Shown: one piece after another, positions 1,534-55,859 of the stretch | Position numbering within the stretch: position 1 is the first letter of the stretch | Layout: each line of letters starts with the position of its first letter | DNA from: Candidatus Lloydbacteria bacterium RIFCSPHIGHO2_02_FULL_50_18 | GTDB taxonomy: Bacteria; Patescibacteriota; Minisyncoccia; Phycocordibacterales; UBA6899 | Assembly (NCBI GenBank): GCA_001821395.1 | Contig: MHLM01000004.1 | Coordinates: 32,001 to 96,000 of the forward strand | DNA length: 64,000 nt | Reading direction: 5' to 3' | Position numbers and translations under genes: made by a program | The notes under the pieces: model-generated | Told to the model about the DNA's origin: nothing | The model's database searches: none | What the model saw: the letters and a program-made list of their open reading frames with translations, nothing else

Positions 1534-1671
1534 GCGGAGGGGGCGAGATGTTCGACGCCTACTGCGTCAGTACCCGTTTCCCATTTTCTCAACATAAGAA
1601 TGTCTCGAAAATAGGGGAGAACGGCTTCGAATCTCGCACGAAAGTCGAGCAGTCGACTTTCTCTCCTCCGC
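1534..1671 (-). repeat. tRNA-3'-end mimic mini-element, instance 1
   Basis: On the minus strand it reads: GCGGAGG acceptor-like stem; hairpin AAAGTCGA-CTGC-TCGACTTT; GCGAGATTCGAA; a 77-nt insert (module B, 1549-1625); then TCTCGCCCCCTCCGCA. That last part copies the T-stem/acceptor 3' strand of the tRNA at 1710-1796 immediately upstream. Module B is about 97% identical to 45097-45171. Confidence 0.5.
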
Positions 1672-1707
1672 ATAAAAAAATCACGCTCATGCGAGCGGAT
1701 TTTTAAA

Positions 1708-1796
1708 TGCGGAGGGGGCGAGATTCGAACTCGCGGACCGTTTAACGGGTCGACAGTTTAGTAAACTGTTGATTTAAACCACTCATCCACCCCTCC
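1708..1796 (-). tRNA. type II (long variable arm), Ser-like tRNA whose canonical fold gives anticodon ACU; possibly aberrant or a pseudogene
   Basis: Manual fold: acceptor GGAGGGG/CCCCTCC, discriminator G73, D-arm GAT-GAGTGGTTTAA-ATC, anticodon stem ACAGT/ACTGT with loop TTACTAA, 17-nt variable arm, T-arm GCGAG-TTCGAAT-CTCGC. The architecture parallels tRNA-Ser(GCT) at 2392-2481. Confidence 0.55.
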
Positions 1797-1836
1797 CTGA
1801 TTCCTGTACTGTAGCATAAAATGCAGCCATGAAAGA

Positions 1837-2216
1837 GAGAGGGCGGGAATTGGTCACAAGTCATACCATCTCCAGTTAACTCTTTCTGCTCACAGAAGTT
1901 TCAAAGGTCAGTCCTTGGCCCTGCCTGCGCAGGCAGGTTTGAAAGGTCTCTCCTTGGAAACTGATTCGGAAGACCTTAACGAGAGATGGTATCACTAAGC
2001 GTATGCGGAGCAAGGCTCCTTATCCGTTAAGTGCACCACGGAGAGGGCGGGAATTTCTCGGCTTACAGCCGCAATACACCTTTGCGATTTATTCAGCATA
2101 AGAATGCTTCACAAATATCACCACGAGGAGTACTTCATTTTTCTAAGACGGAGTACCGTTAAGAAAAATTGGTCGCGCAAAGCTTTTCGAATCTCTTTGC
2201 GAGAGGGCGGATGCGG
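1837..2216 (-). repeat. array of degenerate mini-elements downstream of tRNA-Ser, each ending in a partial copy of the tRNA-Ser 3' end
   Basis: GAGAGGGCGG(GAATT) occurs at 1837-1851, 2041-2056 and 2201-2216; it is the reverse complement of the tRNA-Ser acceptor 3' strand/T-stem. An inverted copy TTCGAATCCCGCCCTCTC lies at 2329-2346. The insert next to it starts AGACGGAGGCG, as does the insert at 45256. Confidence 0.45.
2125..2178 (-). repeat. conserved intergenic hairpin repeat (family M2), copy 1
   Basis: Reads (g)AGTACTTCCATTTTTCTAAG-stem-loop-CTTAGAAAAATTGGTCGC. Two related copies lie at 34395-34449 and 35550-35600. Confidence 0.6.
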
Positions 2217-2391
2217 TCACGAGTTACTAAGCTTTTTATTTCGCTTCGCTCATAAAAATCTAAGTACTCTCGACCCCGACTCGGCTACGACCTTCGACGA
2301 GCTCAGGTCGGCTTCGCGCCTCCGTCTTTCGAATCCCGCCCTCTCGCGCAATGGCATATTAAAAAAGACCTTTCGGTCATTTTTAAGCCAT

Positions 2392-2481
2392 TGGCGGAGA
2401 GGGCGGGATTCGAACCCGCGAGGGGTTTTATCCCCTGCCACGTTAGCAGTGTGGTGCCTTCAGCCGCTCGGCCACCTCTCC
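2392..2481 (-). tRNA. tRNA-Ser(GCU), type II, with encoded CCA
   Basis: Manual fold: acceptor GGAGAGG/CCTCTCC, anticodon loop CTGCTAA (GCT), long variable arm CAGGGGATAAAACCCCTCG, T-arm GCGGG-TTCGAAT-CCCGC, G73 then CCA. Confidence 0.85.
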
Positions 2482-2581: not shown

Positions 2582-3271
2582 ATGCTAATTTGTGTCGAGA
2601 ACTATTTATGGGGGTTTCACGTGGATCTTTGTCATCTCGCGGTAGAAAAAAACGTGCGGGCGTTCATGAATATTATTGTGGAGACTTGCCGCAGGCTTGA
2701 CGTCGAGGTACTCCTCTGCGAGGGTGATCGTGTTGAATATGGCGGTATTTACAGCAATGGATATTTTGGCAACATAAGCCCTCTCTCTGTGCGTTACGCA
2801 GTTGCCGTTGGAAAGCCGACGTCTCTGTGGCTTCCTGTTGCGCTGCATGAATTCTGTCACTTGGAACAATGGGCTGAGGGCGCTCCCGTTTGGATCGATC
2901 AGGAGTTTTCAAAGACAATGTGTGCCTTTGATCTGGTGATGGAATGGTGTGGGGGTAAGGACCTGTCAAAAGAAGAGGTAATCCGACTTGTTCGCCTTGC
3001 GCGCGAGTTGGAGCGGGATTGTGAAGAACGCGCACTCCGGAAGATCACGCAGTTTGAGCTTCCGCTCGATCCTCTCGAGTACACACAAAAGGCAAATAGC
3101 TATTTGTTCTTTTATACCGCCATGATTGAGACGAAACAATGGTACGTCCGTGCGCCGTATGAGGTTCCCGAAGTGTGGACGTTGATGCCCACCATACTTT
3201 TGCCGGCGGGCGATTACGATACGCTTCCTGGGGAATACCTCGAGGCATTCAAGAAGCATCTCTTTGCATAG
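2582..3271 (+). CDS. hypothetical protein with an HExxH motif; possible metal-dependent hydrolase
   Basis: 229-aa ORF. It contains LHEFCHLEQW, reminiscent of HELCHL in DUF45/M48-like hydrolases. No other recognisable domain. Confidence 0.4.
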   Translation: MLICVENYLWGFHVDLCHLAVEKNVRAFMNIIVETCRRLDVEVLLCEGDRVEYGGIYSNGYFGNISPLSVRYAVAVGKPTSLWLPVALHEFCHLEQWAEGAPVWIDQEFSKTMCAFDLVMEWCGGKDLSKEEVIRLVRLARELERDCEERALRKITQFELPLDPLEYTQKANSYLFFYTAMIETKQWYVRAPYEVPEVWTLMPTILLPAGDYDTLPGEYLEAFKKHLFA

Positions 3272-45826: not shown

Positions 45827-46040
45827 AGACAAAACCCTCCTCGTGAACAAACCGCCATAAATAGTACACCAGTAGCTTTGAGAGTCAAGAATGATCAGAA
45901 AATGTAGCAAGTGCACCTAGTGCTCTTCGTATCAGATATATCGACACCAAGTCATCCGACCAAGGTGGGCTTGACTGACCACGGTTTTATCTAGGGTCGG
46001 CCAGCTTTTAAAAACAGAAAAGCGGTATAATTCAGAGTAT

Positions 46041-46394
46041 ATGAATATTTCTAAGAAAAAATTTGTTGCCCTCTTCCTCATTTCTGCGTTTGCCTTTCAA
46101 TTCATCTCCAACTCACTTTTTGGGTCAGACGTTCGACTCTTTCCTCAGAAAGGGGAGTCTTTGTTGGGGACGGATCCACAAATAGGCTGGAAGAGTGCCG
46201 GATACAAAATTCAATTGCCTATCAAAATTGTTTTGATGGGACCCATGCTGCTTTCTACTGATTTTTTGCGAGATGATCCACCACCTCCATTTGTTGCCGC
46301 TGTATTTGCTCTCTACTGGTCGATCCTTGCCTTATTTATTTACTATCTTATCGGTATTATAAGTAGAAGACATCCTCTATGTGTTTCTGCTTGA
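46041..46394 (+). CDS. hypothetical membrane/secreted protein
   Basis: 117 aa with N- and C-terminal hydrophobic segments. Confidence 0.35.
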
Positions 46395-46548
46395 GTGCTT
46401 GGGTAATTTTGTGAGCAAGGAGGAGAGATGGGTTATATCTGTTTTGTTCAAGCGAAATAATTGTTTGTCTGGTTACTCCTGCAAGTTCAGCAAGTTTTTC
46501 TTGCGTAAGGTTTAATTTATTTCGATAAAGAGCAATGTTTGTTTCCAT
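46357..46548 (-). CDS. XRE-family HTH transcriptional regulator
   Basis: 63 aa, [35 protein letters not shown]: a classic Cro/C1-type HTH. Confidence 0.8.
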
Positions 46549-46550
46549 TT

Positions 46551-46979
46551 TTAATTTTTCTTATCTAAATAGAAATTTGAAGCGGCTTTAACGATAGTAC
46601 CAACGATGAGAGCTAATAAGATCACCGGATCAACTCTCGTGATCTCGTTTACAACAATGCCTGCGGCAATCTGATAACCGATGCCTGCGGTGAGCACTAC
46701 TAAGATAGCCCAAAGGGCATTTCGCTCAGAGATCGCTTCGTGTATTATATCCCGCTCGTCTTTCGGCACATGAACCATCATAGCTATGAAATCGATACCA
46801 AAAACGATCGCCCACAATGAGAGCAATACTACTTGCGTTGACCCAATGACATTCATTTCAGTTATGACAATTATCGGCAGTATCATAACGACAATATATG
46901 CCCAGCCTTGCCAAGTAGAAGGTGTCAGCCCCCAGCCCGTATACTTTCTTCTTTTGAACCACTCCGGTTTTGCGATCAT
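46551..46979 (-). CDS. DUF2975-like multi-TM membrane protein (usual partner of small XRE regulators)
   Basis: Four TM helices. Its start follows 3 nt after the XRE gene stop; the start was chosen at MIAKPEWF (the ORF is open to 47036). Confidence 0.45.
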
Positions 46980-47278
46980 ATAATTATGTTTATTACTAAT
47001 GTAATATATACTATACGTAAAATATATATTACACAAGCGCTATTGCGGATAACTTGCATTACGGGTAAAAGTTTCACTGCGGATATTGAATGCTAAGTCA
47101 GGAGATCGTTTTGGGCGGTCTTCCGGGGTGCCTCTTCGTGAGACCCTGAAAGGTAGTTTGTAGGGCAATGCGTCGTCTTCACTCCATCTTTTTCGCCTCT
47201 AATATTTATGCTTCTTCTAACTTAAATAGGTTCCAGTTTGTTCCTGACGCGCAGTATTTTTTTTGGTATGCTCATTTT

Positions 47279-47605
47279 ATGAAGATAGTAAATCCAAGAG
47301 TCGTCCCTGATGTAGCTCAAAAATATATCATCGCCAAGATTTTCAATAGCGATGAACTTCTGCTTTGGGGCGATCCAGAAATCGAATGGCATAAGGACAT
47401 TGCAGAAGAAATGGGTGACGCAGGCCTCGTTGTTGAATGGGTAAGGGGAGGAGGAAGATTGAAATTCGTGACTGATTCGAAAACTATTTATGTCTGGGGT
47501 AAAAGTAGTATGTATGGAGCCGCGTCATTTCGGGAAGCGAAGAACATTTTGAGGATCGCTTATTCTGACTATGACATTCTTAATGAGATCCCTCCAGAAG
47601 AATAG
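47279..47605 (+). CDS. hypothetical protein
   Basis: ORF open from 47168, with the start chosen at MKIVNPR; no known motifs. Confidence 0.35.
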   Translation: MKIVNPRVVPDVAQKYIIAKIFNSDELLLWGDPEIEWHKDIAEEMGDAGLVVEWVRGGGRLKFVTDSKTIYVWGKSSMYGAASFREAKNILRIAYSDYDILNEIPPEE

Positions 47606-47684
47606 TTCCAACGTCGTCCCCTGCATCTAATTTGATAAATGCGCTAATCTTGCTGATTGGCATTTTTTAAAGCCAATGTCTGTT

Positions 47685-47990
47685 TTATGAAAAATCTCGT
47701 TTCCCTTCCCAGGGGATACCCCCGTAGTCCAATAATAGTTCTTCACCAGATCGAATATCTCTTGAGGAGATAAAATAAAATTTATCTCCATTTTGTAACA
47801 GCCCTATGTTGGGATCTTGTGAATGATTTATTTTCTCTCCGAGGCTCGTTCTCGCATAATCCACATCAGGATTTCCCGTGGTGCTAATTCTTTTGAATCC
47901 TAACCCGATATTCTCACCGCAGACGATATTATCTCTAGTGAAAACTCCATGCCCCGCAATATTTGATCCCTTTATTTCGAGGTTGACCAT
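47685..47990 (-). CDS. minimal SET-domain protein (putative protein-lysine methyltransferase)
   Basis: 101 aa with NHSQDPN (SET NHSC(D/N)PN motif) and a C-terminal GEELLLDYG (SET ELxFDY motif). Confidence 0.6.
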   Translation of the reverse strand: MVNLEIKGSNIAGHGVFTRDNIVCGENIGLGFKRISTTGNPDVDYARTSLGEKINHSQDPNIGLLQNGDKFYFISSRDIRSGEELLLDYGGIPWEGKRDFS

Positions 47991-48020
47991 TGCTTTGATT
48001 ATAGCTTTTTGTTAATTTCC

Positions 48021-48506
48021 TCATCGTCTCCATCCCGCATCATCGAATCGTGCGCCATCTCCGTTGAGGTATTTTTGCATCATTTCCTTTGCTGGCCCTC
48101 GGCGCACCCATGCATCATTGACTCCCGTCATGTCGACAAGAATACCTGCAGTGATGATTGCAACAATGAATCCCGCGATGATGATCTTGAAATCTATCTT
48201 GTAGGAAAAATCATAGCGTCGGAGCAACCATATTCCGAGAACGAGTCCGAGTATCGCAAATACGGGCGCCCACCACGGGAAACTCGAAAGAAATTGCTCA
48301 AGGCGATATTCTCCCATTGGTCCGTGCGACCGAGAAAGAAAACGCAGTAATCCAAAAAGGAAAACTGAGACAACTATTGAAGAGACCAACCCCAAGAAGG
48401 TGAGTAGTGATCCGAGAATAAAGTATATCTTTGGGCGGGGTTTTATCTGCTCACCATGGATCTTTCCCATGATGGTGTCGGTGATGTTGTTTAATTCTTT
48501 TGACAT
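48021..48506 (-). CDS. membrane protein, putative anti-sigma factor
   Basis: Immediately downstream of, and overlapping, the ECF sigma gene; N-terminal cytoplasmic segment followed by four TM helices. Confidence 0.4.
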   Translation of the reverse strand: MSKELNNITDTIMGKIHGEQIKPRPKIYFILGSLLTFLGLVSSIVVSVFLFGLLRFLSRSHGPMGEYRLEQFLSSFPWWAPVFAILGLVLGIWLLRRYDFSYKIDFKIIIAGFIVAIITAGILVDMTGVNDAWVRRGPAKEMMQKYLNGDGARFDDAGWRR

Positions 48507-49033
48507 AAGTGTTTCATTAAGGCTTTTGCGCGACTTACGCGCGTCGCAACGGTACCCATTGGTATGCGCAGGATGTCGCTGATCTCTGCATACGACTTCT
48601 CTTCTATATAATACAACGTGAGCGGTTCAGCGTAGAGGAGGGGTATCTGTTCGAGGCACTTCGTCACCATCTCCACTGTTTCTTTTTGCTCGAATTCCTT
48701 TTCGATGTCTTCATCACTTACAAAATCCGCAGTATCCAAGAGAGGGACTTCACTCGGATATTTTTTGATGATGTTGAGTGCCACATTATGTGCAATACGA
48801 TATATCCAGCTCGAAAATTTCTTTTTTACGTCAAAACCGTTGAGATTGATGTACGCGTTAATGAAGGCTTCCTGGACGACGTCGGTCGCCATGTGTTCAT
48901 CCTTGATGAGGTGAGTGACGTAGCGGAGTAGTTTGTGTTGATATCGCTCAATGAGTATAGCGTAAAGATCCCGATCAGTTGATCGAACTTTTTCAACTAT
49001 TGCTTCATCTGAAAGTTTTTCGTTCTCGTCCAT
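48491..49033 (-). CDS. ECF-type RNA polymerase sigma-70 factor
   Basis: Region 2 (YRIAHNVALNIIKK) and region 4 HTH (YAEISDILRIPMGTVATRVSRAKALM); 180 aa. Confidence 0.8.
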   Translation of the reverse strand: MDENEKLSDEAIVEKVRSTDRDLYAILIERYQHKLLRYVTHLIKDEHMATDVVQEAFINAYINLNGFDVKKKFSSWIYRIAHNVALNIIKKYPSEVPLLDTADFVSDEDIEKEFEQKETVEMVTKCLEQIPLLYAEPLTLYYIEEKSYAEISDILRIPMGTVATRVSRAKALMKHLCQKN

Positions 49034-49120
49034 ATAAAAATTCTACTCAGTATTATTGATCATGTACACTAAATCCCCGATCGTGACTCGGGGTAGTGTG
49101 CTTGGGGGTTGTGCTTTTGC

Positions 49121-49492
49121 TTAACGATTCATGTGCCTGCCCATCCCTTTTCCTCGTCCTTCTCCACCTCCAACACCGAGGCCAAGTTCTTGGCGGATCT
49201 TTTGTGCTTCAGCGATCTTTCCTTGCTCTGCCAATTCATGAGCCTCAGCAAATTTTGCAAAGTTCCCCTGATTGATGACTTCCGTTGCTCGTCCTCGTCC
49301 TTGCATCAGCTCTTTCCATGCATTGTAATCCTTCTGCTCAAATACCTTCTCCATTGCCTCATGGCGCTCTGTGCTGTAGTTTGGACCTTTAACGCTAGGG
49401 TCTCCTCTATATGCAAGCGCAGCGCTCGCGGATACCCCGAGTCCTCCAAGGACAAGTGCTGCAACTCCTAAGCCGAATAGTTTTTTGTTCAT
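49121..49492 (-). CDS. small secreted Lys/Glu-rich protein
   Basis: Signal peptide MNKKLFGLGVAALVLGGLGVSASAALA followed by a helical charged region and a G-rich tail. Confidence 0.45.
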   Translation of the reverse strand: MNKKLFGLGVAALVLGGLGVSASAALAYRGDPSVKGPNYSTERHEAMEKVFEQKDYNAWKELMQGRGRATEVINQGNFAKFAEAHELAEQGKIAEAQKIRQELGLGVGGGEGRGKGMGRHMNR

Positions 49493-49741
49493 ATGTGTTT
49501 CTCTTTAGATCAATGATTAATTTCAACCCCCTCCACTATTAATACAAGCTCAGGGAGTATTTTCTTTCATCGGTGAAAATTGCCCGAATTTCAACGTTTA
49601 TTCTCGGTCTTTACGATGGTCTTTTCCGTTGCGAGGGAGGAATGACCCGTGTGAGCTACGATCAGCGGATCGAATGACGCCTGTTGACAGTCGTTGTCTT
49701 CTTTTGACACACTTACTGAGTGAGAAGCAGGTAAAGAAATC

Positions 49742-50815
49742 ATGCATAAAGGGTACAAGCCGATAAAATTCCCGGAAGATGAATCAATCCACGATTATAT
49801 CGTTGAGTGGTGGTATTTTAACGGCCACCTGAAAGATGCAGATGGCAATGAATATCCTTTTATGGACTGTCTGTTCAAGGTGGATATGAAGAAGGTGAAA
49901 AGACCTTTTTTGAGTCGGCTGCGGATCAAAACAGCCTACTTCTCTCATTTCTCTCTTTCGGACCTAACGAATAAAAGTTTTAATCAGCGGATAGCTCCTC
50001 TTTCGCTTGTTTCCGACGATAGCTTTTCTAAACCGCTCCTCTACATTAGTTATATCAATCCCACCGTCAAAAATAGTTACACGAACTGTGTCATTGAAAA
50101 AATAGGTGAGTCAGTTTATCATCTAAAAAATGAGGACATTGATCTCCAGTTAACGTCAGTGAAGGAGCCGCTGCTCGAAGGGGGAAACGGATTTCTCGAT
50201 TTCCATTCTCGGACAACCTATTATTACTCCTTAACGAATCTCAGAACGGTAGGAAAAATAAAGGTCAATGACAAATGGATAACTGTTACCGGCAAGTCCT
50301 GGATGGATCACCAATGGGCGGATGCGAGTTATTCCGTGAATAGGTGGGATTGGTTCTCGGTGCAATTCGATGATGATACGGAAATGGTCTGCTGTGTATA
50401 TGACGATGGCAAGGTCAAGACTTTTTTTGCCGACATTTCGTATCCGGATGGTACAGAGGGGCATTACACTGAGATCGAGATCATTCCTTTGGATAAGCAT
50501 TGGACAAGTCCAAAAAGCAAGGCGGTCTATCCAGTCTCATGGAGCATTACGATACCGGAAAAAAACATAGAGGTGAATCTGACTGCAGTGATCGAAGGTC
50601 AGGAAATGCTTTTTGGGTCAATTAATTATTGGGAGGGTCCGCTTAAGGTGGAGGGTTCATTCGGGGATAAGAGGGTAATCGGTGTCGGCTTCATGGAATT
50701 GGTCGGCTATCCATCAGAGTACAGTAATGTGAGATATCTCAAGGATGAGATCGGTAAGGTCGCAAGTTGGTTTATGTTAGCAATAAGGAAAAGGGCCCCC
50801 ACCCGTGGCTCGTAG
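49742..50815 (+). CDS. CrtC/AttH-like (hydroxyneurosporene synthase-like, lipocalin-fold) protein
   Basis: N-terminal FPEDESIHDYIVEWWYFNGHL matches the P..H...EWWY.TG.L signature of the CrtC/AttH family. Confidence 0.55.
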   Translation: MHKGYKPIKFPEDESIHDYIVEWWYFNGHLKDADGNEYPFMDCLFKVDMKKVKRPFLSRLRIKTAYFSHFSLSDLTNKSFNQRIAPLSLVSDDSFSKPLLYISYINPTVKNSYTNCVIEKIGESVYHLKNEDIDLQLTSVKEPLLEGGNGFLDFHSRTTYYYSLTNLRTVGKIKVNDKWITVTGKSWMDHQWADASYSVNRWDWFSVQFDDDTEMVCCVYDDGKVKTFFADISYPDGTEGHYTEIEIIPLDKHWTSPKSKAVYPVSWSITIPEKNIEVNLTAVIEGQEMLFGSINYWEGPLKVEGSFGDKRVIGVGFMELVGYPSEYSNVRYLKDEIGKVASWFMLAIRKRAPTRGS

Positions 50816-50821
50816 TATAAT
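50816..50821 (+). promoter_or_regulatory. TATAAT -10 box 8 nt upstream of the MFS ATG
   Basis: TAG TATAAT GGTAGGTA ATG. Confidence 0.3.
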
Positions 50822-50829
50822 GGTAGGTA

Positions 50830-52032
50830 ATGAAAAAAGGACCGTTGAATGTTCATCCTGACGTCATAAAATTGGGTATCGTCAGCTTTTTGACCGACCT
50901 CAGTTCCGAGGCGATCTTTTCGGTCTTCTCCCTATTTTTTACCGTCGTGGCGGGTGCTTCAACCTCTCTCCTCGGTTTGATCGAGGGTCTTGCTGACCTG
51001 TCTGCATCTTCGCTCAACTATTTTTCCGGTTGGTTGTCAGATCGCTACGGGAAGAGAAAGCCCCTTGCCGTAGCGGGGTATGGGTTTTCAACGGTGGCAA
51101 AGACGATACTTCTTTTTGGCACATCCGTCCTCGCTCTCGGTTCTTTCAGGGTAATTGAACGTTTGGGAAAAAGCTTTCGAGGTCCGCCCAAAGATGCATG
51201 GCTCGCAGAAATGACGGATGAGTCAACGAAAGGGTATGTTTTTGGTCTGCACAAGGCGATGGACAAAGCGGGCGCCGTGCTCGGTCCGCTTGTCGCATAT
51301 TTTTTACTTCGCGTGCTCGGAGAGAGCACGGGTACGTTCCATGTGATCTTTTTTTTGGCCGTGATAACGGCTGCACTATCGGTCGTTGTGCTTTTGTTCA
51401 TAAAAGATCGTCCGGGTATTTCTCATGAACGCGAAAATATGTTTAAGGCGTGGGGAACATTAAGTCCGCAATTTCGATCGTATCTTATTCCTGCGGGAAT
51501 TTTTTCTTTAGCATATTTCAGTTTCGGGTTTCTTCTGTTGCGGGCTTATTCCATAGGTTTTTCAATGGGTGACGTGGTACTGCTTTACGCACTTTTCAAC
51601 GTTTCGTTCGTCATAATTTCCATCCCGATAGGAAAACTCGGTGACATATTCGGGCGAAAGTACATTGTTGCTTTAGGATATGTTACATATATCATCATGT
51701 CTTTAGGCTTTGTCTTTGCCACTGAAAAATGGGAGGTGGTCATCTTGTTCCTGTTGTTTGGTATTTTTTACAGTATTGATGACGCCCAAAGCAAGGCATT
51801 TATTATGGATATAGAAAAAGACAGACGGGCCACTGCCATCGGCGTGTATAACTTCGTCACCGGCTTGATCTATCTTCCCGCTTCTGTTATTGCAGGCGTT
51901 CTTTGGGTCATGAATCCCGCATATGCATTCATTTTTGCAGCTATCGTCACGAGTATCGCCATGGGCGTTTTTATCGTGTTGCGTCCCTGGAATCAAAATT
52001 TATCACAACAAGATATCACCGAGAACTACTGA
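50830..52032 (+). CDS. MFS transporter
   Basis: 12 TM helices, with the GxLaDrxGrkxxl-like loop LSDRYGKRKPL between TM2 and TM3. Confidence 0.7.
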   Translation: MKKGPLNVHPDVIKLGIVSFLTDLSSEAIFSVFSLFFTVVAGASTSLLGLIEGLADLSASSLNYFSGWLSDRYGKRKPLAVAGYGFSTVAKTILLFGTSVLALGSFRVIERLGKSFRGPPKDAWLAEMTDESTKGYVFGLHKAMDKAGAVLGPLVAYFLLRVLGESTGTFHVIFFLAVITAALSVVVLLFIKDRPGISHERENMFKAWGTLSPQFRSYLIPAGIFSLAYFSFGFLLLRAYSIGFSMGDVVLLYALFNVSFVIISIPIGKLGDIFGRKYIVALGYVTYIIMSLGFVFATEKWEVVILFLLFGIFYSIDDAQSKAFIMDIEKDRRATAIGVYNFVTGLIYLPASVIAGVLWVMNPAYAFIFAAIVTSIAMGVFIVLRPWNQNLSQQDITENY

Positions 52033-55264: not shown

Positions 55265-55379
55265 GTCAGCATGCGAGAGTTGGAGCGGGGTGCATGAGTG
55301 TTTCGTCGCTGCCCCGAGTTTCATGCGGCATTTCACTGTCATTTTTATTAATCTTACCCATAGACCTCAAATAACCTAC

Positions 55380-55859
55380 ATGAATACCACGGAAGAACAC
55401 ATGAATTTTATGCGCGTCGCAGTCGAGCATTCAAAAGCATCGGTCAGAACGGGTGGTGGTCCATTCGGCGCCGTCATCATGCAAAACGGCGTCATCGTGG
55501 GTGAGGGGAATAACATGGTTACGATAATGAATGACCCGACCGCACACGCTGAGGTTGTGGCGATCAGGAACGCCTGCGCGAAACTCAATACGTTTCAGCT
55601 GACGGACTGTACGCTCTACACGAGCTGCGAGCCCTGCCCGATGTGTCTCGGAGCTATCTACTGGGCTCGTCTCGGAAAAGTCTACTTCGGATGCGGAAGG
55701 ACCGATGCAGAGCAGATCGGGTTTGACGATGCGTTCATCTATACGGAGATAAATCGCGAACATGGCGAACGAGCAATAGCATTCGAGCAGTTGCTGCGCG
55801 ATGAAGCACTGGAGGCATTCGCGTTGTGGACCAAGAAGGAAGACAAGACGTCCTACTAA
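55380..55859 (+). CDS. CDA-fold deaminase, guanine deaminase (GuaD)-like
   Basis: GGPFGAVI...NDPTAHAEVVAIRNA...LYTSCEPCPMCLGAIYWAR: Zn-binding H(A)E and PC..C, and near colinear with B. subtilis GuaD from memory. Confidence 0.7.
   Translation: MNTTEEHMNFMRVAVEHSKASVRTGGGPFGAVIMQNGVIVGEGNNMVTIMNDPTAHAEVVAIRNACAKLNTFQLTDCTLYTSCEPCPMCLGAIYWARLGKVYFGCGRTDAEQIGFDDAFIYTEINREHGERAIAFEQLLRDEALEAFALWTKKEDKTSY

Follow-up and report, generated by a model that had tools for sequence, protein, structure and literature searches.

Can a bacterium maintain, in a two-fold split codon box, a transfer RNA (tRNA) whose first anticodon position is encoded as adenosine (A34)? This question is raised by a 64,000-nt stretch of the Candidatus Lloydbacteria bacterium RIFCSPHIGHO2_02_FULL_50_18 genome (contig MHLM01000004.1, positions 32,001 to 96,000; hereafter the window), a member of the Patescibacteria or candidate phyla radiation (CPR), in which an initial annotation had picked out a serine-like tRNA with the anticodon ACU. 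A review describes A34 in the Ser-Arg split box as "universally missing" and phages as lacking the same tRNAs (PMC8007984), and a survey of 4,047 bacteria in GtRNAdb found two-fold-box ANN tRNAs to be just sporadic (bioRxiv 10.64898/2026.05.15.725136). That annotation called A34 all but unknown outside tRNA-Arg(ACG), which agrees with both sources, but our results indicate that this literature is incomplete for CPR bacteria and uncultured phages. We predict that the window carries a working gene for an AGU-reading serine isoacceptor belonging to a family widespread in CPR that usually resides beside tRNA-Ser(GCU), a reading that we regard as probable from comparative sequence evidence. tRNA-Ser(ACU) would thus represent a natural isoacceptor class thought not to exist, which is most likely functional. 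We found no report of a Ser(ACU) family in the searched literature, including work on Patescibacteria tRNA genes and phage tRNAs, though one may exist elsewhere.

The window contains an intact, real tRNA-Ser(ACU) gene. ARAGORN reports eight tRNA genes; two of these, both encoded by the minus strand, are tRNA-Ser(act) (1709-1796) and tRNA-Ser(gct) (2392-2481). In an Infernal search, 1796-1710 aligns with the full length of the Rfam tRNA model RF00005 (model positions 1-71) at 55.8 bits, with E = 2.4e-10 and a gathering score of 29; the neighbouring tRNA-Ser(GCU) scores slightly lower at 54.1 bits. The acceptor stem (GGAGGGG/CCCCUCC) forms seven of seven Watson-Crick pairs and is followed by U8 and G9; a 3-bp D stem (GAU/AUC) encloses an 11-nt D loop (GAGUGGUUUAA) with the GG, and A26 is present. 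The anticodon stem (ACAGU/ACUGU) has five Watson-Crick pairs, and its loop, UUACUAA, supplies U33, the anticodon A34-C35-U36 (window 1762-1760) and A37. The variable region (CGACCCGUUAAACGGUCC) has 18 nt with its own 4-bp stem, and the T arm (GCGAG-UUCGAAU-CUCGC) leads to the discriminator G73, after which comes CAU and no encoded CCA. Altogether, 25 of 25 stem pairs are Watson-Crick, and T54-Psi55-C56, U8, A14 and G18G19 are all present. Hence, both programs concur with the initial annotation on a good, Ser-like type II cloverleaf and on the loop TTACTAA with U33, A37 and the anticodon ACU, now placed on the minus strand; of the parts it listed, the acceptor, the D stem with its GG loop, the T arm and G73 stand, while the variable arm is 18 and not 17 nt long. 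A check by ARAGORN and Infernal for a different fold or anticodon, or for a pseudogene score, returned tRNA-Ser, anticodon act and 55.8 bits. In E. coli, seryl-tRNA synthetase (SerRS) recognizes G73, G1-C72, G2-C71 and A3-U70 and does not need the anticodon; this serine identity set is complete in the window gene, and a terminator-like hairpin with a U-run lies 12 nt 3′ of it in a promoter/terminator scan.

The gene is one member of a large family. A pattern designed to find type II tRNAs by a YUACUAA anticodon loop and a GUUCGAAUC T loop has 0 matches in 100 shuffles of the window and at least 120 matching loci in a scan of one genome per GTDB species; the genome counts that follow rest on the 120 matches listed and are lower bounds. 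ARAGORN calls tRNA-Ser(act) in 119 of them. By label, 94 belong to CPR (39 Saccharibacteria, 44 Paceibacteria/Parcubacteria-type and 11 "Patescibacteria group"), 12 to other phyla and 14 are without a label. tRNA-Ser(gct) is found in the same 8-kb locus in 78 of the 120, and in 58 of these pairs the two genes are at most 1 kb apart: 41 are divergent, 15 run GCU-then-ACU on one strand and two run ACU-then-GCU; the window displays the GCU-then-ACU arrangement of the 15. The paired genes are 67% identical in the window and on average 64% identical within a genome across CPR carriers, and the CPR ACU consensus (GGAgg..TGG.TGAGTGGtTtAAa.CA.CgGTTTACTAAACcGtC) is unlike that of the CPR GCU partners. 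The window has a gene content typical of CPR (pilM/B/T/C, comFC, NAD-dependent ligase, PBP1, CTP synthase and GatA), and its ComFC relatives include Parcubacteria-type metagenome-assembled genomes (e.g., a Candidatus Lloydbacteria genome at 59% identity). The ACU gene is widespread in CPR but probably not universal. Pairwise identities of ACU and GCU genes across CPR classes, compared as a test for horizontal transfer, gave no usable signal (0.81-0.82 both within and between classes).

The family bears the marks of selection on structure. In 112 unique CPR-type sequences, each stem is 97-100% canonical with many pair types, and RNAalifold folds 25 diverse members into a cloverleaf with a long arm. 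These 25 copies have 99.2% of their stem cells paired and changes on both sides in 17 of the 25 pairs, with a covariation score of 0.653 versus 0.195 in shuffles (0 of 500 reach 0.653) and at most 0.12 with partners slid; the variable-arm stem covaries too. The pairs G1-C72, G2-C71 and A3-U70 do not vary among the 25 aligned copies, position 73 is G in every CPR copy displayed (which is not a count over all 112), and few parts of the family are as conserved as the anticodon loop and stem. Stems maintained through compensatory changes point to purifying selection on a working tRNA, and the pseudogene reading accordingly fails. We therefore consider it extremely unlikely that the gene is a decaying paralog, namely a G34A copy of tRNA-Ser(GCU) drifting in tRNA debris, as the initial annotation had alternatively suggested. 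Its anticodon is indeed one transition from GCU, it lacks an encoded CCA, it sits among partial copies of tRNA tails, and other bacteria often have the same body with GCU as its anticodon (111 of 122 metagenome signature matches, see below). However, its stems are perfect and its score equals that of the canonical neighbour; 67% identity to the adjacent GCU gene indicates that it is not a recent copy; compensatory changes extend over more than 100 genomes; and the missing CCA is usual in the family (among the 112 unique sequences, 72 end in ...CGC and 32 in CCA). The tail units also follow canonical GCU genes, and none of the signs of a pseudogene (broken stems, low model score, lost conserved positions) was seen in the window gene.

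The origin of the body can be approached through a CPR signature, TGGNTGAGTGGNTNAANNCANCNGTTT and AAACNGNC around a free anticodon, which in metagenome contigs retrieved 122 matches with the anticodons GCT (111), ACT (6) and CGA (5). As the signature lies mostly on GCU-bearing tRNAs, the ACU tRNA has an ordinary bacterial tRNA-Ser(GCU) body with G34 changed to A. The same search was dropped as a test of anticodon selection, since it retrieves mostly ordinary tRNA-Ser(GCU) and informs on body origin only.

The same anticodon is displayed by uncultured phages. In IMG/VR, at least 120 viral loci match the type II/YUACUAA pattern, and the counts given here for that pattern again rest on the 120 matches listed and are lower bounds: all 120 carry tRNA-Ser(act), usually as part of an array (the largest with 27 tRNAs), and in no case does the locus also contain tRNA-Ser(gct). 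The 107 unique phage sequences covary in all stems, with G73 in 99, and the open reading frames (ORFs) beside them encode phage DNA polymerase, DnaB-like helicase, ligases and exonuclease. Only four of the 120 phage copies have the CPR signature. For control anticodons, complete scans of the viral collection gave 51 loci with Ser(AGA) and one with Tyr(AUA), and in these 52 loci the AGY box is represented by GCU 22 times and by ACU twice. Two representative anticodon-arm queries, in which every 28-mer seed spans A34, had no match in GenBank phage genomes; this fits the literature claim, built on cultured phages, that such tRNAs are absent. A BLAST search of GenBank phages for ACU copies was discarded, since BLAST cannot select by anticodon and returned Ser(UGA) and Ser(GCU) genes. 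Other A34 tRNAs seen in uncultured phage arrays (viral loci L376-L427; L numbers denote individual loci) are, besides the Ser(AGA) genes at 51 loci and the single Tyr(AUA) (L427), Thr(AGU), found five times; the matches listed in the first viral set further include Leu(AAG) three times, Phe(AAA) twice and Gly(ACC) once. One phage contig, from a 238-kb uncultivated virus genome (UViG; L144, 1-5600), has a 16-tRNA array with a CPR-type tRNA-Ser(ACU) and an RNA ligase gene (phrog_968) inside it.

What would such a tRNA read? The window uses AGU 164, AGC 157, AGA 91 and AGG 87 times. When its proteins are aligned with translated CPR loci, AGA falls opposite K, R and S at fractions of 0.30, 0.26 and 0.06, AGG opposite K and R at 0.33 and 0.21, and AGU and AGC opposite S/T/A/N. 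AGA and AGG thus occupy Lys/Arg positions, the AGN codons have their standard meaning without recoding, and an inosine-driven reading of AGA as Ser is unsupported. We infer that the ACU tRNA is expressed, serylated, unmodified at A34 and specific for AGU, and published E. coli experiments with an ACU anticodon, described below, support the reading of AGU alone. In the mechanism that we propose, transcription would end at the gene's own hairpin and U-run, and CCA would be added post-transcriptionally. SerRS would charge the product through the long variable arm, G1-C72/G2-C71/A3-U70 and G73, leaving the anticodon unread; A34 would then pair with U3 of the codon in Watson-Crick geometry to serve AGU, and tRNA-Ser(GCU) would cover AGC, plus AGU by wobble. 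A34 would most likely escape modification, since TadA requires G at position 36 (its substrate loop being U33-A34-C35-G36), where this tRNA has U. SerRS ignores the anticodon, and the synthetases for Asn, Asp, His, Tyr, Phe and Cys use anticodon bases. Hence, a G34-to-A change may be accessible for Ser-AGY and not for the other NNY split boxes, because an anticodon-blind synthetase imposes no charging cost; the near absence of Tyr(AUA) in phages fits this proposal. A Ser-charged AGU reader was also the functional option of the initial annotation, and the intact fold, the Ser identity elements, the terminator and the compensatory changes in more than 100 genomes argue in its favor.

Several observations weigh against this interpretation. 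A simple scan found no sigma-70-like promoter for the ACU gene. In its favor, carriers are AT-rich at third positions and prefer AGU (G+C at third positions, GC3, of 0.34 for CPR and 0.31 for phage loci; AGU/AGY 0.68-0.69), and loci with the GCU form of the same body have a GC3 of 0.54 and an AGU/AGY of 0.40; the window itself, however, is not AGU-biased (AGU 51% of AGY, GC3 0.56), and the U-fraction of the AGY box in carrier genomes is no higher than that of other NNY boxes. Codon demand alone thus does not single out Ser, and we set it aside as the explanation. By tRNAscan-SE, complete Patescibacteria genomes have mostly four Ser tRNAs in the part covered here of a table in PMC13011429, which argues against universality; that table gives counts per amino acid only, from which no Ser(ACU) prevalence can be derived. 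Further, an engineered tRNA-Phe(AAA) of a two-fold box was found to carry I34 in E. coli (bioRxiv 10.64898/2026.05.15.725136), so that a relaxed deaminase specificity is possible. Some non-CPR pattern matches are hybrid tRNA-like sequences at integrase junctions: in the cultured Polynucleobacter sp. 31A-FELB (L036, 3195-4658), an ACU tRNA-Ser-like sequence directly precedes a P4-type tyrosine integrase, and its acceptor strands are unpaired (GGAAACG versus CCUCUCC), probably reflecting a hybrid tRNA at an island junction. Finally, five relatives with the same comFC/tRNA-Ser(GCU) synteny (L371-L375; ComFC 59-65% identical) have no tRNA-Ser(ACU) within at least 7 kb, implying that the gene is not universal in the lineage or lies elsewhere in those genomes.

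The last two of these points also favor the view that the gene is recent cargo of a mobile element or phage integrated at a tRNA-Ser(GCU) hot spot and contributes little if anything to host translation, a view that we judge quite unlikely. In relatives, the DNA downstream of tRNA-Ser(GCU) is a variable island with restriction-modification genes, a reverse transcriptase like those of diversity-generating retroelements (DGRs) and LAGLIDADG; in L371 (13869-15303), reverse transcriptase fragments and a bAvd-like gene resembling a DGR lie there. The closest relatives, whose ComFC is 85-96% identical to that of the window, have contigs that end inside or at most ~130 nt after tRNA-Ser(GCU) (L366, 6631-6703; L367, 5332-5419; contig ends of L368 and L369), where the repeated tail copies begin in the window; this suggests either that the assembly broke at a repeat or that the site is a strain-variable hot spot. 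The commonness of tRNA-Ser(ACU) in phage tRNA arrays and the lower GC content of the ACU tRNA (53% versus 66% for the neighbouring GCU tRNA) are likewise in keeping with cargo, and it is possible that the gene was gained by transfer in the lineage of the window. Along ComFC synteny, the contigs of the three closest relatives stop at this point and more distant relatives are without ACU at the locus. On the other side, no integrase or phage gene adjoins the ACU gene in the window, and the gene is not part of a tRNA array, being flanked just by short non-coding tail units; it lies beyond the last GCU-tail copy (1837-1853), the place of the original chromosomal neighbour in an integration model. 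Among the matches listed, the same-strand GCU-then-ACU tandem recurs in 15 other CPR loci and the pair in 78, and the rarity of the CPR signature in phage copies speaks against a phage source. The neighbours of the tRNA pair are a Big_13 surface protein, comFC and a type IV pilus operon. The 229-aa product of the adjacent plus-strand ORF 2582-3271 matches nothing in Pfam and lacks a homolog in all ten relatives, and this ORF is a strain-specific insertion, because L366 (96% ComFC identity) has tRNA-Ser(GCU) ~170 nt after comFC.

A second possibility, which we hold to be unlikely, is that the tRNA is functional but that a TadA-like enzyme converts A34 to inosine, so that it would read AGU and AGC, and AGA weakly, yielding a broad AGY decoder or an ambiguous decoding of AGA. 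Its loop shares U33-A34-C35 and A37-A38 with tRNA-Arg(ACG), phage arrays can hold Arg(ACG) and Ser(ACU) together, and the tRNA-Phe(AAA) result noted above lends this idea further support. Against this, inosine in E. coli was detected only in ANG anticodons, with the ACU anticodon unmodified, and an orthogonal ACU-anticodon tRNA read AGU at 9.4% and AGG at 0.36%, with AGC and AGA below detection (PMC11066159). These data and the Lys/Arg placement of AGA and AGG disfavor the AGU/AGC/AGA reading that the initial annotation had offered for I34. The 64-kb window has a sole TadA-like ORF (55290-55859, plus strand), a deaminase of the cytidine deaminase (CDA) fold that is TadA-like by BLAST and NCBIfam (85.6 bits, cut-off 150); we rejected it as TadA, as it is a full-length homolog of the B. 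subtilis guanine deaminase (PDB 1WKQ, E = 1.5e-49) versus ~1e-22 over part of its length for TadA. Bacteria normally carry Arg(ACG) and TadA, without Arg(GCG). In two CPR genomes, tRNA-Arg(GCG), the form expected without I34 use, adjoins tRNA-Ser(ACU) (L043, 542-614; L079, 5649-5721), suggesting that some CPR may do without wobble inosine.

Staphylococci use non-proteinogenic tRNAs to build peptidoglycan bridges, and the ACU tRNA might by analogy be charged for a non-ribosomal use, e.g., to donate serine in aminoacyl-transfer reactions of the cell envelope or elsewhere. Such a role would suit a tRNA whose decoding capacity is already supplied by tRNA-Ser(GCU). We regard it as very unlikely, since the anticodon loop and stem are conserved as expected of a decoder, phages place the gene in ordinary decoding arrays instead of Ser(GCU), and carrier genomes favor AGU. 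Returning to the AGU-reading isoacceptor, growth was improved by overexpression of Ser-tRNA(ACU) in E. coli (bioRxiv 10.64898/2026.05.15.725136). A more far-reaching version, which we offer as doubtful, holds that Patescibacteria have rewired wobble decoding as a lineage trait: they would dispense with I34, read CGY with tRNA-Arg(GCG) and depend on a dedicated unmodified A34 tRNA as essential for AGU. The A34 tRNA may then be kept since the diverged CPR tRNA-Ser(GCU) reads U poorly, and many uncultured phages may have adopted the same solution independently. If true, this would be the first natural, lineage-wide exception to the exclusion of A34 from split codon boxes.

The surroundings of the gene have their own history (Table 1). 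Both Ser tRNAs lie in the 1.1 kb that separate ORF 2582-3271 from the Big_13 surface-protein gene, together with several units of 140-230 nt. Each unit is made up of a hairpin resembling a terminator, the local tRNA tail in inverted copy, a structured core and a direct copy of that tail, where the tail comprises half of the T loop, the T-stem 3′ strand and the acceptor 3′ strand. The unit at 1535-1708 has a terminator, the inverted tail, a covarying hairpin, GUGCGAGAUUCGAA, a second hairpin and a direct copy of the ACU tail (AUCUCGCCCCCUCCGCA, 1535-1551). As the initial annotation had observed, the 3′ end of the ACU tRNA is copied into this unit, 1522-1549 repeating 1697-1724 at 89% identity. 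Within the unit at 2199-2391 are an inverted tail copy (2328-2358), a conserved core (2209-2283) sharing 94.5% identity with L079, and a direct tail copy that is degenerate (2199-2216).

Table 1. Positions of the tRNA genes, the terminator and the tail units in the window
Feature	Position	Strand	Detail	Evidence
tRNA-Ser(ACU), type II	1710..1796	minus	87 nt up to discriminator G73; CCA not encoded	ARAGORN, Rfam RF00005, family covariation
Anticodon ACU (plus-strand AGT) in loop UUACUAA	1760..1762	minus	anticodon at position 35 in ARAGORN	ARAGORN
Intrinsic-terminator-like hairpin CGCUC-GCAU-GAGCG, then UGAUUUUUUU	1674..1697	minus		promoter/terminator scan
Partner tRNA-Ser(GCU), CCA encoded	2392..2481	minus	683 nt upstream (start to start) of the ACU gene	ARAGORN, Rfam 54.1 bits
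Inverted copy of the ACU tRNA 3′ acceptor strand and trailer	1665..1682		complementary to 1698-1715 (18 nt, 89%); likewise in L091, L054, L022	repeat search
Type 2 tail unit (element 1 of the initial annotation)	1535..1708	minus	aligned with L091, L054, L022, L106	repeats
Type 1 tail unit behind tRNA-Ser(GCU)	2199..2391	minus		repeats, BLAST, alignment of 16 units
Direct tRNA-Ser(GCU) 3′ tail copy, end of a further unit	2039..2057	minus		repeat search
Last direct tRNA-Ser(GCU) 3′ tail copy	1837..1853	minus	~40 nt upstream of the ACU 5′ end	repeat search

The unit family extends over window positions 1535-2414 and further loci (L001, L003, L004, L018, L022, L040, L043, L054, L061, L068, L081, L084, L088, L091, L094, L119 and L372-L374). 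It has two conserved cores and no Rfam match; the hairpin stems covary, and the tail copies follow the local tRNA sequence. A direct tail copy 125-220 nt downstream is found in CPR loci for 13 of 88 ACU genes and 12 of 67 GCU genes, and in one of 108 phage loci. Homologs of element 1 and of the unit at 2199-2391 lie behind tRNA-Ser(GCU) in L374 and in L372 and L373, respectively. Since the units also stand behind canonical GCU genes, they identify tRNA-Ser genes as targets rather than wrecks, and the "mimic-element graveyard" that the initial annotation took to fit decay loses its force. All GCU-tail copies in the window fall between the two tRNAs; the simplest history would be a GCU-ACU tandem split by insertions at the GCU 3′ end, plus one unit at the ACU 3′ end. 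The units could be a miniature integrative element using a T-loop position, a miniature inverted-repeat transposable element (MITE) with tRNA-tail terminal inverted repeats, or a structured RNA mimicking the acceptor/T-arm. Elsewhere in the window, 46001-52000 has a GC fraction of 0.40-0.45 versus ~0.50 in the remainder; most of its ORFs are short, both strands are used, and the region is a possible island.

These findings are of interest to specialists of tRNA and the genetic code in that the exclusion of A34 from split boxes is not absolute. They point to an anticodon-blind synthetase and escape from TadA as conditions permitting A34, and they offer a natural test case for why split-box A34 tRNAs are excluded, which has so far been studied with engineered tRNAs; the question is testable in the cultivable, genetically tractable Saccharibacteria. 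Annotators, too, are warned against discarding such tRNA genes as pseudogenes.

Comparison with known systems places the gene more precisely. It is like canonical bacterial tRNA-Ser(GCU) of the E. coli serV type in its type II build, 3-bp D stem, long variable arm, G73 and G1-C72/G2-C71/A3-U70, but has A34 in place of G34 and, in CPR, coexists with a second, differently built tRNA-Ser(GCU). With tRNA-Arg(ACG), which is read as ICG and is a TadA substrate, it shares an encoded A34, U33-A34-C35 and A37-A38; unlike that tRNA it has U36 and not G36, is of type II and serves a split codon box in which I34 would misread AGA. The Leu(AAG) and Thr(AGU) tRNAs of Lactobacillales/Leuconostocaceae and Mollicutes are similarly lineage-conserved A34 isoacceptors of AT-rich genomes (PMC8007984; bioRxiv 10.64898/2026.05.15.725136), but they belong to four-fold boxes, where any wobble is harmless, and replace the G34 tRNA, whereas Ser(ACU) serves a two-fold box and, in CPR, is retained alongside the G34 tRNA. 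Engineered E. coli ACU tRNAs (the M. jannaschii orthogonal tRNA(ACU) and serV G34A) have the same anticodon, read AGU only, without inosine, and are neutral or beneficial for growth; these are artificial, while the window gene is natural and conserved. Lastly, the phage tRNA-Ser(ACU) of IMG/VR has the same anticodon, type II fold, G73 and structural selection as the CPR copies, but its body sequence is unlike theirs and it stands in place of Ser(GCU), whereas the CPR copy stands beside it.

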